Shown: positions 39,643 through 60,011, counted from the stretch's first letter. The stretch is 64,000 nucleotides of DNA from a virus (IMGVR_UViG_3300027804_000039:1-64000); one strand, 5' to 3'. Notes: a model not told the origin generated them from the letters alone. Numbers and translations: made by a program.

Positions 39643-41049
39643 TTAGATATCGTAGCGTGGGACCATTACAGTCTTAAGCATGATACCTTCTGGAGTGAAT
39701 TGATCCAAATCAGCTGAAAGCAAGGCCTTCATGATGCTTGGGCTAAATCCACTTACCAGTGCCGCACCACTCTTGTCTGCCTTTACAGGCACGTTACCAG
39801 AACTGTTTAGGTTCCAGAACACAATTTGTGGAACAGTATAACCTGCATCTGCGAACTTGCGTTCAATCATTTGCATTGCTGTGTCGTCGAAACGAGCACA
39901 TTGGTTAAACTGCATGTCGCTCAAGATAAGCAACATCTTTGGCATATCGCTTTCTGGGACGTTACCCTTGACAGCAACACTAAGGATCTTGTCCATAGCC
40001 TTGTGCAAGTCGGTACTCATTTCCCAGTTACTACGTGACATTTGGTCAACCTTTTGAACGATGTTACCCTTTAGAGTAACAAGTTCTGGCTTGCTTGAGA
40101 AGGTCAAGAATGTGTCCTTGAACGCACCCTTGTTCTTGTCTGCTAGGTACAAACCTAAACCAACTGCAACGTCCAAGCAACGAACAGACGAACCTGGAAC
40201 AGGTGTGGTCATAGAACCACTTACGTCGACTAGAGGTAGGATACTTGCGTCACCTACATAGTTAGGCAGAGCGTCCCATTGTGCGATGACATGGTCGGTT
40301 TCTGTCTTGTCCAGCTTGGTGTAGCTGTGTGCGATGCCCTTAAGGACATCGTGTGGGAAGATTGCATCGGCGTTAACCTTTACAGTCTTATCCCCTGCCA
40401 CCAACTTGGCCACATACTCTGCAAATGCAGGTGTGTGACGGTTGAATGCCTTCTTGTAGTTGCGAGCAGCTACAGAAGGAACATGTGAGAAGTTAATGTT
40501 GTCCCAGTCGTTGGCACACATTTGTGTTTCAACAACTGTAGTGAGAGCAACAAGACTCTTACGATATTGCTTAGGAGTCATTCCGAAGAATGCTCGTACT
40601 TCAGCCGCAATCTTACCCTTACGTGGAGTCCACTTAGCGGCAAGACCGTTCTTCGCACGAAGGGCATCGCCCAACATGGTATAAGCGGCTGACTTTAGGA
40701 CCGGACTTTGGAAGACAAAGATATCATCCCAGCGGCCTACTTCAGGCACCTTCTTTAGCAAAGCCAAAGCGGCGTCTGGATCGCGTTGTTCTAGATGAAC
40801 TAGAATATCGCGGAACAGTTGACGTTCACCTGCACCGCCACGGACATCACGTGCCCATTGTGCAATGCGAAGTGCTACATCAGAATTCTCGACATACGCG
40901 GCAGTAAATGCCTTAGTGATGTCCTTACCACGGCTTGCGCCGATGTTGTAAAACAGGTCAACTGTAGCCTTAGCTGTTGACTTACGTGCCTTCATACCGT
41001 TTGCGGTACGGGCTTCTTGGTTTGCTACTGCTGTTACAAATGCGTTCAT
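39643..41049 (-). CDS. Ro60/Rsr-like TROVE + vWA protein (DUF2828-type)
   Basis: RDVRGGAGER, GRWDD, LAAKW.PR, vWA MIDAS DVSGSM, TFS, ILSDMQF, VFWNL. Confidence 0.85.
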   Translation of the reverse strand: MNAFVTAVANQEARTANGMKARKSTAKATVDLFYNIGASRGKDITKAFTAAYVENSDVALRIAQWARDVRGGAGERQLFRDILVHLEQRDPDAALALLKKVPEVGRWDDIFVFQSPVLKSAAYTMLGDALRAKNGLAAKWTPRKGKIAAEVRAFFGMTPKQYRKSLVALTTVVETQMCANDWDNINFSHVPSVAARNYKKAFNRHTPAFAEYVAKLVAGDKTVKVNADAIFPHDVLKGIAHSYTKLDKTETDHVIAQWDALPNYVGDASILPLVDVSGSMTTPVPGSSVRCLDVAVGLGLYLADKNKGAFKDTFLTFSSKPELVTLKGNIVQKVDQMSRSNWEMSTDLHKAMDKILSVAVKGNVPESDMPKMLLILSDMQFNQCARFDDTAMQMIERKFADAGYTVPQIVFWNLNSSGNVPVKADKSGAALVSGFSPSIMKALLSADLDQFTPEGIMLKTVMVPRYDI

Positions 41050-42816: not shown

Positions 42817-43047
42817 TTATTTAATTTTTCGAATATACTCTTTTCCAATTTTGCCTTCTTCAAATTCTAGAAGTGCTGTAACTGGAGTATGTCTGTGTTC
42901 AAAACGTTCGCTTGAACTTTGTTGTCTTTTAATTTCTCTTGCACGGGCTGCGGCCATTAGTACTAGTTCAAAGCGATTGCCGCCTGCATTTTCTACGCAC
43001 AAGTCCATGTCAATATTTGCGCTACGTTCACTCATAGATAACTCCAA
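42817..43047 (-). CDS. rpoZ: RNA polymerase omega subunit-like protein
   Basis: NRFELVLMAAARAREI...PVTALLEFEEGKI. Confidence 0.85.
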   Translation of the reverse strand: MELSMSERSANIDMDLCVENAGGNRFELVLMAAARAREIKRQQSSSERFEHRHTPVTALLEFEEGKIGKEYIRKIK

Positions 43048-43166: not shown

Positions 43167-43265
43167 TGGTGCCTCTGGCAGGACTCGAACCTGCACACTC
43201 AGGCTTATCTGGCCTGTGCTTTGGCGAGGTATAAGCTCGCTTCTTTACCATTAAGCTACAGAGGC
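43167..43265 (-). tRNA. tRNA-Ile(TAT) with long variable arm
   Basis: Stem GCGAG/CTCGC, loop CTTATAC, ~29-nt variable region containing a CAGGC/GCCTG stem. Confidence 0.8.
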
Positions 43266-46615: not shown

Positions 46616-46813
46616 ATTGTTTGAACTTTTCTTTGACACGTTCTAATGCCTCTTTACGCATTAAATAAGAACGCTGTTCATTTATTTTATGAACATAGAT
46701 GTATTCGACACCGTCGATTATCTCAACTCTACGAGTGTCTTCACATATAAATTTATCGTTGTTCATGCGATTTTTAAATGTTACAGGTTTCATAACACTC
46801 TCCTTGAATAAAA

Positions 46814-46928
46814 CGGGATACTATCGTTTTGACGAATGCTCTACCTAATGAGCTAAACTGGCATGAAGCCAACTGTTGGACTCGAACCAACTACCTATCG
46901 TTTGGATAGATTTGCTGTGAGTATCCCT
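46814..46928 (-). ncRNA. YrlA-like RNA Y7
   Basis: GGGAUAC-UCA-CAGCAA ... GUAUCCCG; T arm GUUGGUUCGAGUCCAAC, acceptor-like hairpin, D arm GCUCAUUAGGUAGAGC. Confidence 0.75.
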
Positions 46929-47857: not shown

Positions 47858-47962
47858 ATGATCCGTAATCATTTGATTTTACGTGCCATCCGGACCATAC
47901 GGGGATCGCGGATGACACTAACGTTTACCTGAACGTTTCATGTCATTCTCCTTAAAAAACAA

Positions 47963-47991
47963 ATTATATATTCATTTCAAATTCTTGTCAA
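47963..47991 (-). promoter_or_regulatory. sigma70-type promoter inside the tRNA array
   Basis: TTGACA-17-TATAAT. Confidence 0.8.
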
Positions 47992-48059
47992 TGAACATAA
48001 TCAGTACTACGAGTAAAAGTAAAACAGCCACCGCCCCATGATTGTTCTCCTTAAAAAAA

Positions 48060-48128: not shown

Positions 48129-48204
48129 TGGTGCCGCCTCGTGGGATCGAACCACGTTCCGACGCTCTTCAGGCGCCTGCTATGACCACATCAGCTAAAG
48201 CGGC
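48129..48204 (-). tRNA. tRNA-Phe(GAA)
   Basis: Loop CTGAAGA. Confidence 0.88.
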
Positions 48205-48365
48205 AAATAGATTGGGTGCCTAACTATCCTCCTGGGAAGACTCGCTAGATTGTCTCGAATAGTCAAGTTTAACATACCGGCTTCAGTCATACTGTAGTGT
48301 CACCACAGTTAACCCCACTGTGGCTAGACTGGCAGGGACTCTAAACTATCGTCTATCCCAAAACT

Positions 48366-48440
48366 TGGTGCTCCGTGACGGACTCGAACCGCCATCGCCG
48401 GACTACAAAACCGGAATTCTAGCCTTTGAAATAACAGAGC
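48366..48440 (-). tRNA. atypical tRNA, probably Thr(TGT)
   Basis: Loop TTTGTAG with U31xU39 mismatch; anticodon register slightly ambiguous. Confidence 0.65.
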
Positions 48441-48445
48441 AAAAT

Positions 48446-48523
48446 TGGTCTCCATGGTAGGATTCGAACCTACAGCCTCCTGACTCCAGATCAGGCCGTC
48501 TACCAGATTGACATTACACAGAG
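48446..48523 (-). tRNA. atypical tRNA-Pro(TGG)
   Basis: Loop TCTGGAG (C33 instead of U33). Confidence 0.75.
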
Positions 48524-48529
48524 ATAACT

Positions 48530-48604
48530 TGGTGGAGACCGAGGGAATCGAACCCTTCTAGACATCTTCCTTGCAAGGGAAGACCGTAGCCCACTACTGC
48601 CCCC
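48530..48604 (-). tRNA. atypical tRNA-Ala(TGC)
   Basis: Loop CTTGCAA, G3-U70, 4-nt D loop. Confidence 0.75.
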
Positions 48605-48614
48605 AAATTCTTTT

Positions 48615-48692
48615 TGGCACCCCAGGAAGGACTCGAACCTCCGACTCCCACGTTCGTAGCGTAGTACTCTTATTCCTCTGAGTTACTGGGGT
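48615..48692 (-). tRNA. tRNA-Arg(ACG)
   Basis: Loop CTACGAA. Confidence 0.88.
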
Positions 48693-48698
48693 ATAAAT

Positions 48699-48776
48699 TG
48701 GAGTAGGGAGTCGGATTCGAACCGACGGCTTTAGAGTTTTGCAGACTCTTGCATTGGGCCTCTCTGCCATCCCTAC
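48699..48776 (-). tRNA. tRNA-Cys(GCA)
   Basis: Loop CTGCAAA, U73. Confidence 0.92.
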
Positions 48777-48783
48777 ATAATAT

Positions 48784-48858
48784 TGGCGCCGTAGACGAGA
48801 ATCGAACTCGCCTTAGTCGGATAGACAATCCGTTGCCCTCCCAGAGAACTACTACGGC
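48784..48858 (-). tRNA. atypical tRNA-Asp(GTC)
   Basis: Loop TTGTCTA (U37), G73. Confidence 0.78.
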
Positions 48859-48862
48859 ATGT

Positions 48863-48936
48863 TGGTATCGCGTACGGGGATCGAACCCGCCTGATCAGGT
48901 TGAAAGCCTGAGGACCTCCCAGAAGTCTAACGCGAT
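48863..48936 (-). tRNA. tRNA-Glu(TTC), second copy
   Basis: Loop CTTTCAA. Confidence 0.85.
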
Positions 48937-48945
48937 ATAAAAAAA

Positions 48946-49005
48946 CAGGATACATTTTCTTTTTTCACCAATTGAAAGTTGAATAAAGTTTGCTGTGAGT
49001 ATCCT
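48946..49005 (-). ncRNA. minimal Y-like RNA Y9
   Basis: AGGAUAC-UCA-CAGCAA ... GUAUCCUG. Confidence 0.6.
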
Positions 49006-49011
49006 TAAACT

Positions 49012-49085
49012 TGGCAGGGGCATTAGGGATCGAACCTAAACTAACAGAGTCAAAGTCTGTTGTGCTACCATTACACAATGCCCCA
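49012..49085 (-). tRNA. tRNA-Gln(TTG)
   Basis: Loop CTTTGAC. Confidence 0.9.
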
Positions 49086-49091
49086 ACAAAT

Positions 49092-49169
49092 TGGCTGTGC
49101 GTCTAGGAATCGAACCCAGCTCATTCTTCGTTAACAGCGAAGCGCCTACACCTTGCTTGCTCACGCACA
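49092..49169 (-). tRNA. tRNA-Asn(GTT), second copy
   Basis: Loop CTGTTAA, G73, divergent D arm. Confidence 0.85.
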
Positions 49170-49176
49170 ATAAATT

Positions 49177-49250
49177 TGGTTCCCAGAACAAGAATCGAAC
49201 TTGTAATGACCGGTTATCAGCCGATTGTTATACCATTTAACTATCCGGGA
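49177..49250 (-). tRNA. tRNA-Ile(GAT)
   Basis: Loop CTGATAA. Confidence 0.9.
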
Positions 49251-49255
49251 ATAAT

Positions 49256-49344
49256 TGGTGGAGCCTGAAGGAATCGAACCTAATTGCCAACCACCCTACA
49301 TATTAAGGCAACGGATTTACAGTCCGCCGTAGGGATCAAGCTCC
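49256..49344 (-). tRNA. atypical tRNA-Tyr(GTA) lacking a D arm
   Basis: Loop CTGTAAA; D region is only GATCCCTACG; long V arm. Confidence 0.7.
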
Positions 49345-49363
49345 AAAATTTTCACACACTCTT

Positions 49364-49461
49364 TAGAATGTGTCGTATAAAATAAGCTAGTTCATCCCGT
49401 CAAGGGGGAAACGTTATACGATTCCTAACTTGCTTTATACGCTACCTTTTTACACATTCTA
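49364..49461 (-). ncRNA. unassigned structured element
   Basis: Stacked 10-bp and 8-bp helices (49364-81 with 49434-61). Confidence 0.4.
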
Positions 49462-49557
49462 GTTATCGCCTAGAACTTACCATCCGGTAGGCCGCCCACA
49501 TTAAGCCGATGTTTTAAGTGCCAGCAGGGTCGCGTTCCCTATACACACTTTTTGCGA

Positions 49558-49722
49558 TTATTCGTGCTCTACGAGCTCGTCTTTTCGCTTGTGAAATGCT
49601 TCATAATAAGCCTTTGCACGTATAAACTTATTTTCAATAAGCCTTTCGAGCTCATCTTCACTAAGTTCATGCCTGGCTAAAAATTCAGCATCTCTTTGTT
49701 TTCTAAAATCTAAAGTTTCCAT
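49558..49722 (-). CDS. small charged hypothetical protein (54 aa)
   Basis: METLDFRKQRDAEFLARHE...; AGGA SD; first gene after the attenuator. Confidence 0.55.
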   Translation of the reverse strand: METLDFRKQRDAEFLARHELSEDELERLIENKFIRAKAYYEAFHKRKDELVEHE

Positions 49723-49739
49723 TTCAAATCCTACAAAAC

Positions 49740-49767
49740 AAAAAACCCTGGGTGTTTAGTCCAGGGT
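49740..49767 (-). terminator. intrinsic terminator of the attenuator
   Basis: ACCCUGG-9nt-CCAGGGU followed by a U run; 5' arm shared with the antiterminator. Confidence 0.8.
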
Positions 49768-49823
49768 CCTTTTAAAGTTTGAGTGTTAGTTTATGTTAAC
49801 TTACACTATCCTCCAAGGACCCT
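49763..49823 (-). promoter_or_regulatory. antiterminator hairpin
   Basis: AGGGUCCUU (49815-23) pairs with AAGGACCCU (49763-71); upper stem AGUGUAAGUU/AACUAACACU contains the leader stop codon. Confidence 0.7.
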
Positions 49824-49954
49824 ACGGTAATCTCAGGTGTACGATCATTACCTAGACTGCCGGTACTAAACTGTGACCAATAGGCAGACATACATGCCGG
49901 CACTTTGGCTACTTGTTTAGATATCAGTTGTCTATGTAAACTGTTCGTTTTCAT
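49796..49954 (-). CDS. candidate attenuator leader peptide (52 aa, all 20 amino acids)
   Basis: MKTNSLHRQLISKQVAKVPACMSAYWSQFSTGSLGNDRTPEITVGSLEDSVS; lies between promoter and terminator. Confidence 0.65.
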   Translation of the reverse strand: MKTNSLHRQLISKQVAKVPACMSAYWSQFSTGSLGNDRTPEITVGSLEDSVS

Positions 49955-50010
49955 TTTTTGTTTCTCTTCATTACCTTAAAAAATTGTAGCGGAATTGCTA
50001 CTGTTTCGTT

Positions 50011-50039
50011 ATTGTAACGTCTTTCAACGCTACTGTCAA
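50011..50039 (-). promoter_or_regulatory. sigma70-type promoter at the head of the tRNA array
   Basis: TTGACA-17-TACAAT. Confidence 0.8.
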
Positions 50040-50059
50040 CAACTTTTTGAAATATTTTT

Positions 50060-50077
50060 TGTTGTATTTTTACAACA
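50060..50077. promoter_or_regulatory. palindromic operator-like site, copy 3
   Basis: TGTTGTA-TTTT-TACAACA. Confidence 0.5.
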
Positions 50078-50110
50078 GTTGCTACTTCACTAACTTGCTG
50101 ACTGAACCTT

Positions 50111-50139
50111 ATTGTATAGTTATTTAGTCTCTGTGTCAA
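50111..50139 (-). promoter_or_regulatory. second tandem sigma70-type promoter
   Basis: TTGACA-17-TACAAT. Confidence 0.7.
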
Positions 50140-50246
50140 CCTCTATTTGCATTTTTGAGCAAAAAAGATTCACCAACTATCTAACTAGTCTCGATTGTAT
50201 AGTATATATGCCTATGTGTCAAGACCGGTACGGAAATGTTGTTTTT

Positions 50247-50603
50247 TTACGACATTTGACTGTCTCCGGGCAGAACACGATAGTTGTCCTCTGCAGAGTC
50301 TGCTGTACTTACTTCTATTATAGTACCTTCTTCAAAACAAATCAACTGGTGCGGACTCATTGGAGGGTTGTGCCACACATCACCTGCTTTGAGTTCTTGT
50401 ATAGACTGCTGTGCGTTTTTGGTATTGATGAATCTCAATTCAAATCGTCCGCTTAACACGTACCAAGTTTCATCCTTGTCCTTGTGAAAGTGCATACTAA
50501 ATCTTGCACCAGCTTTGAAGTTTAAGAATTTACCACAGTACTTGTCTGTGTTTGCCCATATAACTTCTTCGCCCCATCCTTTTGGTACATGTCCTGTTTT
50601 CAT
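50247..50603 (-). CDS. cupin protein (sugar isomerase-like)
   Basis: KGWGEE, SMHFH..KDETW, HNPP..PHQ, EVST. Confidence 0.8.
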   Translation of the reverse strand: MKTGHVPKGWGEEVIWANTDKYCGKFLNFKAGARFSMHFHKDKDETWYVLSGRFELRFINTKNAQQSIQELKAGDVWHNPPMSPHQLICFEEGTIIEVSTADSAEDNYRVLPGDSQMS

Positions 50604-51358
50604 CGTATTTCCTCTAGTCTAGGAGCATAGCATCCTAGGTGTTGTACTGTTACTGCGGCAGCTCGGTTGGCAAATTCTATGGCTACTTTTATGTCCTTTG
50701 TTTCCAAGTACATGTAGGTCAGTGCTGATAAAAATGTGTCGCCTGCTCCTGTCACATCAATAACTTCTACTCTTGGAGCAGACGACTTAAACTCGTGATG
50801 CTTTGCTTCAGCACCATTTGCTCCTAGTGTAACAATAAGTCCCGAGCATTCTGAAGTAATTTTACTGTATTCTACTTCGTTTATCTTAACCCAAGCGCCT
50901 TGAAATCTTTCCAAGTTAGTTTTTTTAGTGTCTACAAATACAGGAACACGACTTTCGATAGCCTGTTCTATTAGTTCATAGGTAACAGTTCCTTTACCGT
51001 AGTCAGCAACAACAATAGCATCATAGTCCTTGAACATATCAGCTGTCATTAATAGTGGAACGCTGTGTGCATCTTCGTCTACCCTAAGGACTTGTTGTTT
51101 GCTACGACTGTCAATAAATCTAGTTTTTCTACTTATTTCGCCTGTTTTTAGTGTTACACTACAGCCCAGTGCTATCAAGTTGTTAAACACATTACCAACC
51201 ATGCCTGGCTTTCCAATGGACTGTGTTGGGCTAAAAACTGGTACAGGTGCTTCTGGGCTAATCCTGTCTACCGTTCCAAATTGATAAACATCAAGTCCGT
51301 TGTCGCCTATCAATAATATGTTGTATTGTTTTGGTTGTTGAATGTTCTGTTCTGTCAT
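50600..51358 (-). CDS. PfkB-family kinase, HldE/RfaE kinase-domain-like
   Basis: DRISPEAPVPV, DYGKG, DVTGAGDT. Confidence 0.88.
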   Translation of the reverse strand: MTEQNIQQPKQYNILLIGDNGLDVYQFGTVDRISPEAPVPVFSPTQSIGKPGMVGNVFNNLIALGCSVTLKTGEISRKTRFIDSRSKQQVLRVDEDAHSVPLLMTADMFKDYDAIVVADYGKGTVTYELIEQAIESRVPVFVDTKKTNLERFQGAWVKINEVEYSKITSECSGLIVTLGANGAEAKHHEFKSSAPRVEVIDVTGAGDTFLSALTYMYLETKDIKVAIEFANRAAAVTVQHLGCYAPRLEEIR

Positions 51359-51692
51359 AATAAATTACTTTCTGGCAATAAGTTTCTCCGATGACACTTT
51401 TGCCTCGATAATCACTACCTTTTACCATTGTACAGCCTTTAACGATTTCAATCAATTCTTCCGGTGAATTGAAAAGTTCTACTCGATCAACCGCCTTGAG
51501 ATTTTCCAAAAATAATTTTCTATCATTTTGGTTATTGATTGGGCGATCAGGGCCCTTGAGCTGTTGGACACGTTCGTCCGTGTCTATTGCTACAATAAGA
51601 AAATCCCCGAGCGATCTAGCATAGTTTAACAACGCCAAATGCCCAGGGTGTAATATATCAAAAGTTCCGTTGACTACTATTTTCTTCATCAA
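51291..51692 (-). CDS. cytidylyltransferase-family protein, HldE adenylyltransferase-domain-like
   Basis: NGTFDILHPGH, KGPDRPIN, VKGSDY, STT. Confidence 0.88.
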   Translation of the reverse strand: MMKKIVVNGTFDILHPGHLALLNYARSLGDFLIVAIDTDERVQQLKGPDRPINNQNDRKLFLENLKAVDRVELFNSPEELIEIVKGCTMVKGSDYRGKSVIGETYCQKVIYYDRTEHSTTKTIQHIIDRRQRT

Positions 51693-58840: not shown

Positions 58841-58916
58841 TGGTGCGCTGAGTGGGAATCGAACCCACGCATCTGGAGTTTTAGAGGCTCCCGCTGTTCC
58901 ATTTAGCTATCAGCGC
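58841..58916 (-). tRNA. tRNA with CTA anticodon (amber suppressor candidate)
   Basis: GGAGC-CTCTAAA-ACTCC, acceptor GCGCTGA/TCAGCGC-ACCA. Confidence 0.7.
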
Positions 58917-59428: not shown

Positions 59429-59546
59429 ACTAAATTTTTCCTTATGTGTTTCACTGTGTGTGATGTCTTTCTATATATCTACGAAAAACACACAGCTTAG
59501 AGTATTATATATTCACGTAAACCATGAGAGCAAATTTTTTTACTCC

Positions 59547-59574
59547 AAAAAAATAGCACCCGAAGGTGCTATTT
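59547..59574 (-). terminator. terminator after the tmRNA coding piece
   Basis: AAATAGCACC-TTCG-GGTGCTATTT plus T run. Confidence 0.75.
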
Positions 59575-59579
59575 GTTAT

Positions 59580-59925
59580 TTTGGGTGACAAGGTATAACT
59601 ACCCCGGTTCCGCTGTTTCTTAGGCAGCTAAAGCAAACTTGCTGTCGTTGACAGCTACGTCTACTTCGTAGAACTTAAATGCTGATTTTGCATTTATAAG
59701 TTTTGCTTGATTTACGGTCATCGCCTACCGTGTTGCCGTCTCTACTATCTACCCCTGTCGAAACCATGGCAGGCCCATCATAAAATGACTAGGAAAACTA
59801 TAGCAACTGCGATAAATCCAACTAGTGTACTATATCCAGTGTCCATACTAATCTCCTTATGGTGGACCTGGCGGGAGTCGAACCCGCGTCCAGAAGTCCT
59901 TCGCTTTGAAGGGATTACAACAATT
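59580..59925 (-). ncRNA. ssrA: circularly permuted (two-piece) tmRNA
   Basis: Acceptor piece with T arm and CAGGUCC-ACCA (ending 59860) precedes the GGGCCUG..GUUUCGAC 5' end (59776); G3-U70; tag AKSAFKFYEVDVAVNDSKFALAA* at 59620-59691; outer ends approximate. Confidence 0.88.
59778..59846 (-). CDS. 22-aa hydrophobic micropeptide in the tmRNA intervening segment
   Basis: AAGGAG SD, MDTGYSTLVGFIAVAIVFLVIL*. Confidence 0.55.
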   Translation of the reverse strand: MDTGYSTLVGFIAVAIVFLVIL

Positions 59926-59927
59926 CT

Positions 59928-60011
59928 TTACTTACTATTGCGTCTTCTAGTAGCTTTAGCTCTAGAAGCTGCTTTCGTACGTGCCGCACGGGCTCTTACT
60001 AATCTTCCCAT
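59928..60011 (-). CDS. 27-aa Arg/Ala/Lys-rich peptide
   Basis: GGAG SD, MGRLVRARAARTKAASRAKATRRRNSK*. Confidence 0.55.
   Translation of the reverse strand: MGRLVRARAARTKAASRAKATRRRNSK

Follow-up and report, generated by a model that had tools for sequence, protein, structure and literature searches.

The window analysed here, which spans the opening 64 kb of an IMG/VR virus record (191 kb, completeness estimated at ~50%), carries on its minus strand between 49735 and 50222, in order, three tandem promoter-like sites, a small 5' hairpin, a 52-codon open reading frame (ORF) and an intrinsic terminator. The three promoter-like sites (distal, 50194-50222; middle, 50111-50139; proximal, 50011-50039) all read TTGACA-17-TACAAT and match 11 of 12 consensus positions. 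A first-pass annotation of this DNA had noted only the proximal one, which is indeed present at 50039-50011 and is conserved in alignment A2; with those beginning at 50139 and 50222, the promoters ahead of the leader are three in tandem. Two consensus promoters ~100 nt apart are found upstream of the leader in all relatives. At the transcript start is a 5'-proximal hairpin (GUAGC-loop-GCUAC, 49986-50001, minus strand) that is nearly invariant among close relatives and may serve as a stabiliser or as a weak stop for upstream transcripts. There is no second copy of the leader in the genome fragment. Just upstream of the promoters are cupin, PfkB-type sugar kinase and cytidylyltransferase genes (50247-51692, minus strand); the remote relative L063 contains a fused cytidylyltransferase-cupin gene a few kb upstream of its leader, with other genes between.

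The leader ORF (49796-49954, minus strand), identified by ORF calling and by homolog comparison, has 52 codons plus a stop codon and encodes all 20 amino acids. The earlier counts for this ORF are exact: the set of 20 amino acids is complete by codon 41, and 37 distinct sense codons are used, 34 of them within the first 42, with ATA, AGA, CCG and CTA among them. At least 37 distinct codons per 52 are found in only 0.66% of windows from the phage's own long ORFs. The codons of the leader are not significantly rare (11th percentile), and a run of one regulatory codon is absent, with 37 distinct codons in 52.

The intrinsic terminator (49735-49770, minus strand) consists of ACCCUGG, a 9-nt loop and CCAGGGU followed by U6-G-U4, with a folding energy of -13.6 kcal/mol. 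Its 5' arm can also pair with a strand inside the ORF. Region 2 (UAGGGUCCUU, 49815-49824, minus strand) is the 5' strand of this antiterminator, and region 3 (AAGGACCCUG, 49762-49771, minus strand) is the shared strand, serving as both the antiterminator 3' strand and the terminator 5' arm. As proposed from the first reading of the sequence, codons 44-47 (GTA GGG TCC TTG) hold AGGGUCCUU, which is complementary to AAGGACCCU in the terminator arm, and the helix reaches 10 contiguous pairs when the flanking U.G is counted. The inner stem reported with it is also present, and folding gives an inner antiterminator hairpin at 49782-49807 (minus strand) with 9 of 10 pairs and the stop codon at its tip. 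A Shine-Dalgarno-like GGAGGA, whose possible role is discussed below, is located just 3' of region 2 (49809-49814, minus strand).

Relatives of the leader were collected from three sources. A large protein collection contains 57 homologs of the leader peptide, 47-58 aa in length (one called at 77 aa); 61 matching loci include 44 from metagenomes and 17 viral ones (16 real, one false positive); and a profile search gave 16 further remote cluster representatives. The trimmed set from the protein homologs, loci and remote representatives contains 100 unique leaders of 44-58 aa, and the leaders come from uncultured phage contigs. All loci whose downstream sequence is long enough have a tRNA array starting 450-830 nt past the beginning of the ORF, and the identity of the first tRNAs differs from locus to locus. 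Because the same order is kept across relatives, the promoters, leader, terminator, small protein gene and tRNA array form a conserved unit. A phage collection held no DNA match to the region and only chance-level peptide matches (E of 6 or more), and Pfam and PHROGs have no family for the leader peptide or for the small protein behind the terminator. A search of 49250-50250 against Rfam 15 at E up to 1 returned nothing but a weak tRNA-like match at 49259-49345, by which a T-box or other curated RNA family is excluded.

Comparison of these leaders suggests, along four lines of evolutionary evidence, that the ORF is translated, as had been assumed. An ATG-initiated ORF is retained in 100 of the 100 unique leaders, and indels in its core are in-frame. 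Over all pairs of leaders, the synonymous share of single-base codon differences is 0.49, compared with 0.23 expected. The leader peptide is under purifying selection, with variation in its conserved motif mostly at third positions, and its C-terminal tail is free to shift frame. In one clade (L014, L016, L017, L054, L061 and L063; e.g. L063:9960-10005), there is no 5' UTR, and the -10 box is only 7-10 nt before the ATG of an ATGATG start, which points to an mRNA that is leaderless, or nearly so, with AUG at its 5' end.

The alternative pairing is conserved as well. A GC-rich stem and a U-run are found in all homologs, and the terminator stem covaries. RNAalifold on MAFFT alignments found the terminator and neither the antiterminator nor P1, the long hairpin described below, because clades were aligned one base out of register; antiterminator pairs were therefore counted from sequence anchors. 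In all 38 unique leaders tested, there is a contiguous antiterminator helix of 6-15 pairs, and in all 38 it shares 6-10 nt with the terminator 5' arm. Where GGGU[C/U]C pairs with G[G/A]ACCC, the variable pair is C:G in 30 leaders and U:A in 8, and mismatches are absent. A three-way covariation links the nucleotide immediately 5' of GGG in region 2, the one immediately 3' of CCC in region 3 and the region 4 partner of the latter (A/U/A in 27 leaders and G/C/G in 4; a further 4 have a wobble pair and 3 are exceptions), and three bases changing together indicate that both alternative helices are under selection. The nucleotides of region 2 are conserved in two reading frames: GGGUCC is read as V-G-S or, in one clade, as R-V, where a 2-nt indel shifts the frame and leaves both the GGGUCC nucleotides and the stop-codon distance intact. 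The distance from the Glu codon to the antiterminator strand is 8-12 nt. The stop codon is always inside the antiterminator loop, 11-26 nt after the antiterminator 5' strand and 17-29 nt before the other strand, and 48-57 nt separate it from the U-run. The terminator and antiterminator are thus mutually exclusive and covary in relatives, in agreement with the original proposal.

Most of the ORF is itself folded. Minimum free energy folds of all divergent homologs agree on P1, a long irregular hairpin over codons 3-38 (49841-49948, minus strand), which is ~100 nt in length, covers most of the ORF and is common to all homologs, with z-scores of -0.5 to -3.8; the fold z-score of the window leader is -3.2. 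In alignment A4, 82.7% of P1 cells are paired, compared with 26-42% for slid controls, a count that used the structure taken from the window, a choice that favours P1. In all homologs P1 pairs AUG-proximal codons with the codons of a conserved Asn-Asp-Arg (N-D-R) stretch, and in the leaderless variants the 5' AUG is predicted to pair inside P1. A pairing between Y-W-S and N-D-R codons, proposed by RNAalifold, was dropped, being absent in distant homologs.

Folding energies favour the antiterminator hairpin (-22 to -32 kcal/mol) over the terminator (-13.6 to -18 kcal/mol), which suggests that untranslated RNA folds into the read-through state. In thermodynamic folds of the window and of divergent homologs, untranslated RNA forms P1 plus the antiterminator, and no anti-antiterminator (1:2 pairing) was found in these folds. 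To mimic a ribosome, a 30-nt footprint was masked at each A-site codon. With the A site at codons 2 to ~36-40, the masked RNA is predicted to fold into the antiterminator; with the A site in the last quarter of the ORF, it is predicted to form the terminator, and 10 of 11 divergent leaders follow the same pattern, with the antiterminator at early stalls and the terminator at late positions. Folding with and without ribosome-covered segments is thus consistent with the earlier suggestion that a ribosome finishing the leader would let the terminator form and a stalled one would allow read-through.

The amino acid composition of the leader is maintained to an unusual degree. All 20 amino acids are present in 94 of the 100 unique leaders, and the rest are without Cys or Val only; complete leaders account for 38 of 39 from loci and 55 of 57 from the protein collection. 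Windows from the phage's own long ORFs contain all 20 in 1.2% of cases at a length of 44 aa and in 3.9% at 52 aa. Although Cys makes up only 1.2% of the background, 96 of the 100 leaders contain it, 85 of them once, and across the alignment it is found in 18 columns. Every leader contains His, 97 of them once, spread over 9 columns. What is conserved is therefore the presence of these residues and not their position. Of 13 clade representatives (28-82% pairwise identity), 12 are complete, and when residues were shuffled within columns the mean was ~5 and none of 20000 trials reached 12; these statistics are inflated by shared ancestry, and a conservative estimate that counts relocations as independent events gives p ~0.001-0.02. 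The neighbouring small protein, although as long as the leader peptide, contains 14-17 kinds of amino acids in nearly all homologs, and one 64-65-aa variant has 20. A codon-sampling sensor would predict presence kept without position and a functional small protein would not; with 94 of 100 divergent leaders complete despite the moving Cys and His, the pan-amino-acid reading of the first-pass annotation is thus favoured. In many leaders, Asp and Glu occur only in a conserved D-R-T-P-E, at the boundary where read-through flips to termination, and in the clade with the R-V frame, Val occurs only inside region 2.

The aligned leaders keep the ORF, the compensatory pairs and the amino acid completeness, but the peptide divergence expected from the first reading holds only in part, as Y-W and N-D-R-T-P-E-I are conserved. 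The latter motif (codons 36-42, 49829-49849, minus strand) spans the 3' strand of P1, formed by the N-D-R codons, and a single-stranded linker. Of 39 unique leaders, 37 have an identical peptide here. Codon differences at N, R, P and I are confined to synonymous third positions, and the one amino acid change seen, Asp to Gly (GAT to GGC), occurs in two leaders. In remote homologs the motif takes the form D-R-T/A-P/T/V-E, so that D-R-x-x-E persists in them. ACA and GAG within the motif never vary, even at third positions, and nucleotide conservation in the linker exceeds coding needs; since the motif is also partly the P1 3' strand, some of the conservation is at the RNA level. TAT-TGG pairs with the GCC of the A-K/Q codons, and the spacing from the upstream W to the N of the motif varies by 7-12 residues. 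GGAGG, AAGGAG or AAGGAA is found at the Shine-Dalgarno-like place in all homologs, whatever the frame (alignment A3). A pure codon-sampling sensor has no need of the conserved Y-W and N-D-R-T-P-E-I and leaves both unexplained. The invariance of D-R-T-P-E and the Shine-Dalgarno-like motif after region 2 point to a possible extra built-in function in pausing or parking the ribosome.

The terminator at 49770-49735 had been described as leading straight into tRNA genes. The terminator is there, but the tRNA genes are not directly adjacent, as a 54-aa ORF and ~210 nt intervene. This conserved ORF (orf54, 49558-49722, minus strand) has a good Shine-Dalgarno sequence and is the first gene behind the attenuator. 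In nearly all loci an orf54-like protein of 50-65 aa starts 20-25 nt past the U-run. Its conserved residues are H18, L20, L28, I29, K32, R35 and A36, its AlphaFold model is a helical hairpin (helix-turn-long-helix, pLDDT 83) that is itself uninformative, and such proteins were found only in this phage group. The gene that is always under direct control is orf54, not a tRNA.

The array that follows begins with a probable atypical tRNA-Tyr (anticodon GUA, 49259-49345, minus strand), which ARAGORN missed; its anticodon loop is readable, and its tRNA-clan match of 28.6 bits is below threshold. A first tRNA block, from Ile to Phe (48129-49250, minus strand, from ARAGORN and a promoter scan), precedes the next consensus promoter. 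Counting the probable tRNA-Tyr, the array encodes tRNAs for all 20 amino acids. In the window, the stretch from the terminator to the first tRNA block contains no consensus promoter, and the same applies to 8 of the 10 relatives examined. A weak promoter-like site does precede the first tRNA of the window (TTGACG-18-TATACG, 49374-49403, minus strand), and in the equivalent position, immediately ahead of the first tRNA, L012 and L015 carry a 12/12 promoter. With these sites, the tRNAs do not depend wholly on read-through. The internal promoters reported at 47963, 45720 and 43054 are confirmed.

Based on these observations, we propose that the element is a ribosome-dependent leader-peptide transcription attenuator through which a freshwater jumbo phage controls a small protein gene and its tRNA array and gauges tRNA supply or decoding speed, a reading to which we assign a probability of roughly 0.6. 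We are fairly confident in the part of it that describes a translated attenuator; that it gauges the whole aminoacyl-tRNA supply has about an even chance. Strong sigma-70-type promoters would start a transcript whose first ~215 nt hold an ORF of 44-54 codons. With no ribosome, or with a ribosome held in the first ~3/4 of the ORF, the strand in codons 44-47 would pair with the terminator 5' arm, and transcription would continue through the antiterminator state into orf54 and the tRNA genes. A ribosome in the last quarter of the ORF or at the stop codon would leave region 2 unpaired, the terminator would form, and transcription would stop. Since the leader is kept complete and a tRNA for each amino acid is encoded in the array, the switch most likely reads overall decoding speed, in the sense of how well any charged tRNA is supplied, or general translation capacity. 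The phage tRNAs would feed back negatively on their own synthesis, as faster translation of the leader would shut the switch. A shortage of charged tRNA could stem from host shut-off or from tRNA-cleaving immunity; since extra tRNA genes cannot relieve amino acid starvation, the useful signal should be tRNA loss or slow decoding. A homeostatic pan-tRNA feedback, in which a shortage of any charged tRNA opens the full tRNA set and which would also amount to a regulated counter-defence, is plausible, though we put it at slightly under an even bet.

The conserved motif could instead mark a nascent-peptide sensor, in which D-R-T-P-E stalls the ribosome for one specific signal, e.g. a metabolite, a factor or a drug-like molecule, the stall position picks the terminator or antiterminator, and completeness is secondary. 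Such a sensor would account for the constancy of the motif peptide (37 of 39 unique leaders, with codon changes mainly synonymous), for its persistence as D-R-x-x-E in remote homologs, and for the Shine-Dalgarno-like motif that follows region 2 in all homologs. With 8-12 nt between the end of the motif and region 2, a ribosome halted just past the motif would also cover region 2. The single-copy Cys and His at 18 and 9 positions would be left unexplained, however; a W-to-N spacing that varies by 7-12 residues leaves no fixed exit-tunnel geometry, and the ACA/GAG invariance and the P1 strand put some of the conservation at the RNA level. To our knowledge, D-R-T-P-E matches no known arrest motif, and we consider this explanation unlikely. 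Another possibility, which we regard as quite improbable, is that the leader senses ribosome availability or initiation and reports the supply of free ribosomes, e.g. after host shut-off or ribosome hibernation. P1 would sequester the start region once transcribed, so that only a promptly loading ribosome would reach region 2 in time. The pairing of AUG-proximal with N-D-R codons by P1 in all homologs, the 5' AUG inside P1 in leaderless variants and the antiterminator state of untranslated RNA all agree with this, but it gives no reason for completeness, and it is compatible with the pan-tRNA attenuator as an added input rather than as a replacement.

Two further explanations do without a switch that is read by a ribosome on the leader, and both seem very improbable to us. 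The locus could hold an ordinary small protein gene and an ordinary terminator, the pairing being incidental and the peptide acting in trans. The purifying selection on the peptide and its conserved motifs are in line with this, and trans-acting leader peptides such as peTrpL are known. An incidental pairing would not be expected to covary, to be kept in two frames or to take part in a three-way covariation with the terminator, nor would an ordinary protein be expected to have a frame-free C-terminal tail, a single Cys and His that wander, and no family match. The locus could also encode a non-coding structured RNA with an incidental ORF, which would act in trans as an sRNA or bind a protein, a tRNA or a ligand as a riboswitch-like leader. 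A strong promoter, ~215 nt of highly structured RNA and a terminator do resemble an sRNA gene, and nucleotide conservation in the linker is above coding needs. Against this, none of the 100 variants has lost the ORF, core indels are in-frame, synonymous changes are enriched, the leaderless clade has acquired a 5'-terminal ATG, and no Rfam family, including T-box, matches.

The proposed pan-tRNA attenuator shares its logic with known systems. The trpL, hisL, leuL and pheL leaders have a translated short ORF and a terminator whose 5' arm alternatively pairs with an upstream strand; in these classical attenuators the position of the ribosome picks the helix, and a hairpin in the ORF may synchronise RNA polymerase and ribosome. 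The phage leader resembles them in its leader ORF, intrinsic terminator and alternative pairing. It differs in lacking a codon run, with every amino acid present mostly once or a few times, in being 3-4 times longer, in having the antiterminator 5' strand inside the ORF and the stop codon in the antiterminator loop, and in controlling a small protein and tRNAs rather than biosynthetic enzymes. As no anti-antiterminator was found in the phage leader, its untranslated state is expected to give read-through, not classical super-attenuation. Multivalent attenuators are also known, the ilvGMEDA leader sensing Ile, Leu and Val and the thr leader Thr and Ile. Like these, the phage leader would sense more than one aminoacyl-tRNA, but they do so for 2-3 amino acids via clustered codons, whereas the phage leader covers all 20 over ~40 codons. 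T-boxes are untranslated and directly bind one specific uncharged tRNA, which decides between terminator and antiterminator. The phage element would likewise read tRNA charging status and control genes of the translation apparatus; unlike T-boxes, it has an ORF under coding selection and gives no T-box match.

Arrest-peptide leaders such as TnaC, SecM and the Erm leaders have, like the phage leader, a conserved peptide motif near the site where the fate of the RNA is decided. In contrast to them, the phage leader has no recognised arrest motif and a variable spacing to the upstream W, and a stall in it is only postulated. In pyrBI, a closely following ribosome prevents termination; the phage element would similarly read the coupling of the leading ribosome and RNA polymerase, with the opposite predicted polarity. 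The closest general stall sensor is the toiL uORF, which acts on translation and Rho-dependent termination and responds to antibiotics. It is located upstream of topAI-yjhQ in E. coli and is reported to sense general translation stress by stalling at several positions (PMC12121999). Unlike toiL, the phage element combines an intrinsic terminator with an antiterminator that covaries with it, and tRNA supply is the signal to which its composition points. The first-pass annotation knew of no general tRNA-shortage attenuator for a phage tRNA operon, and in full-text literature searches we likewise found no published precedent or description of such control of phage tRNAs. The logic is that of leader-peptide attenuation; the differences are the absence of a codon run, the sampling of all amino acids, the read-through default, the stop codon in the loop and the tRNA target.

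Why phages carry tRNA genes and how these genes are expressed has been debated for decades. Recent work has tied phage tRNAs to escape from tRNA-targeting host defences (PMC10264068). If our proposal is true, the phage measures the decoding capacity of its host and doses its own tRNAs to match. Leader-peptide attenuation would then extend from 1-3 amino acids to the whole aminoacyl-tRNA pool, and reporters that track translation speed globally could be built around the leader as a compact natural component.

Several other features were observed in and around the array. A 72-aa ORF inside it (42817-43035, minus strand), located behind the internal promoter at 43082-43054, matches RNA polymerase omega (Rpb6/RpoZ; PF01192, E 1.3e-9). 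Two mini-ORFs with a strong AAGGAG ribosome-binding site are also found on the minus strand of the array, M-G-R-W-L-F-Y-F-Y-S at 48006-48038 and M-K-R-S-G-K-R at 47917-47940, the latter between the consensus promoter at 47991 and two tRNA-Lys genes; no obvious terminator switch was seen. A 96-nt tRNA (43170-43265, minus strand; Rfam, 59.7 bits), missed by ARAGORN, may hold an intron or a long insertion, and there are weak YrlA-like Rfam matches within the array (46811-46928). A protein with DUF2828 and DUF7788 domains (39643-41049, minus strand) adjoins the array. Farther away, a tRNA with the anticodon CTA (58841-58916, minus strand), labelled Pyl by ARAGORN, is a possible amber suppressor. 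The phage also encodes a tmRNA (59529-59973, minus strand) that matches the betaproteobacterial and permuted (two-piece) models at ~138-140 bits, which hints at a betaproteobacterial host.
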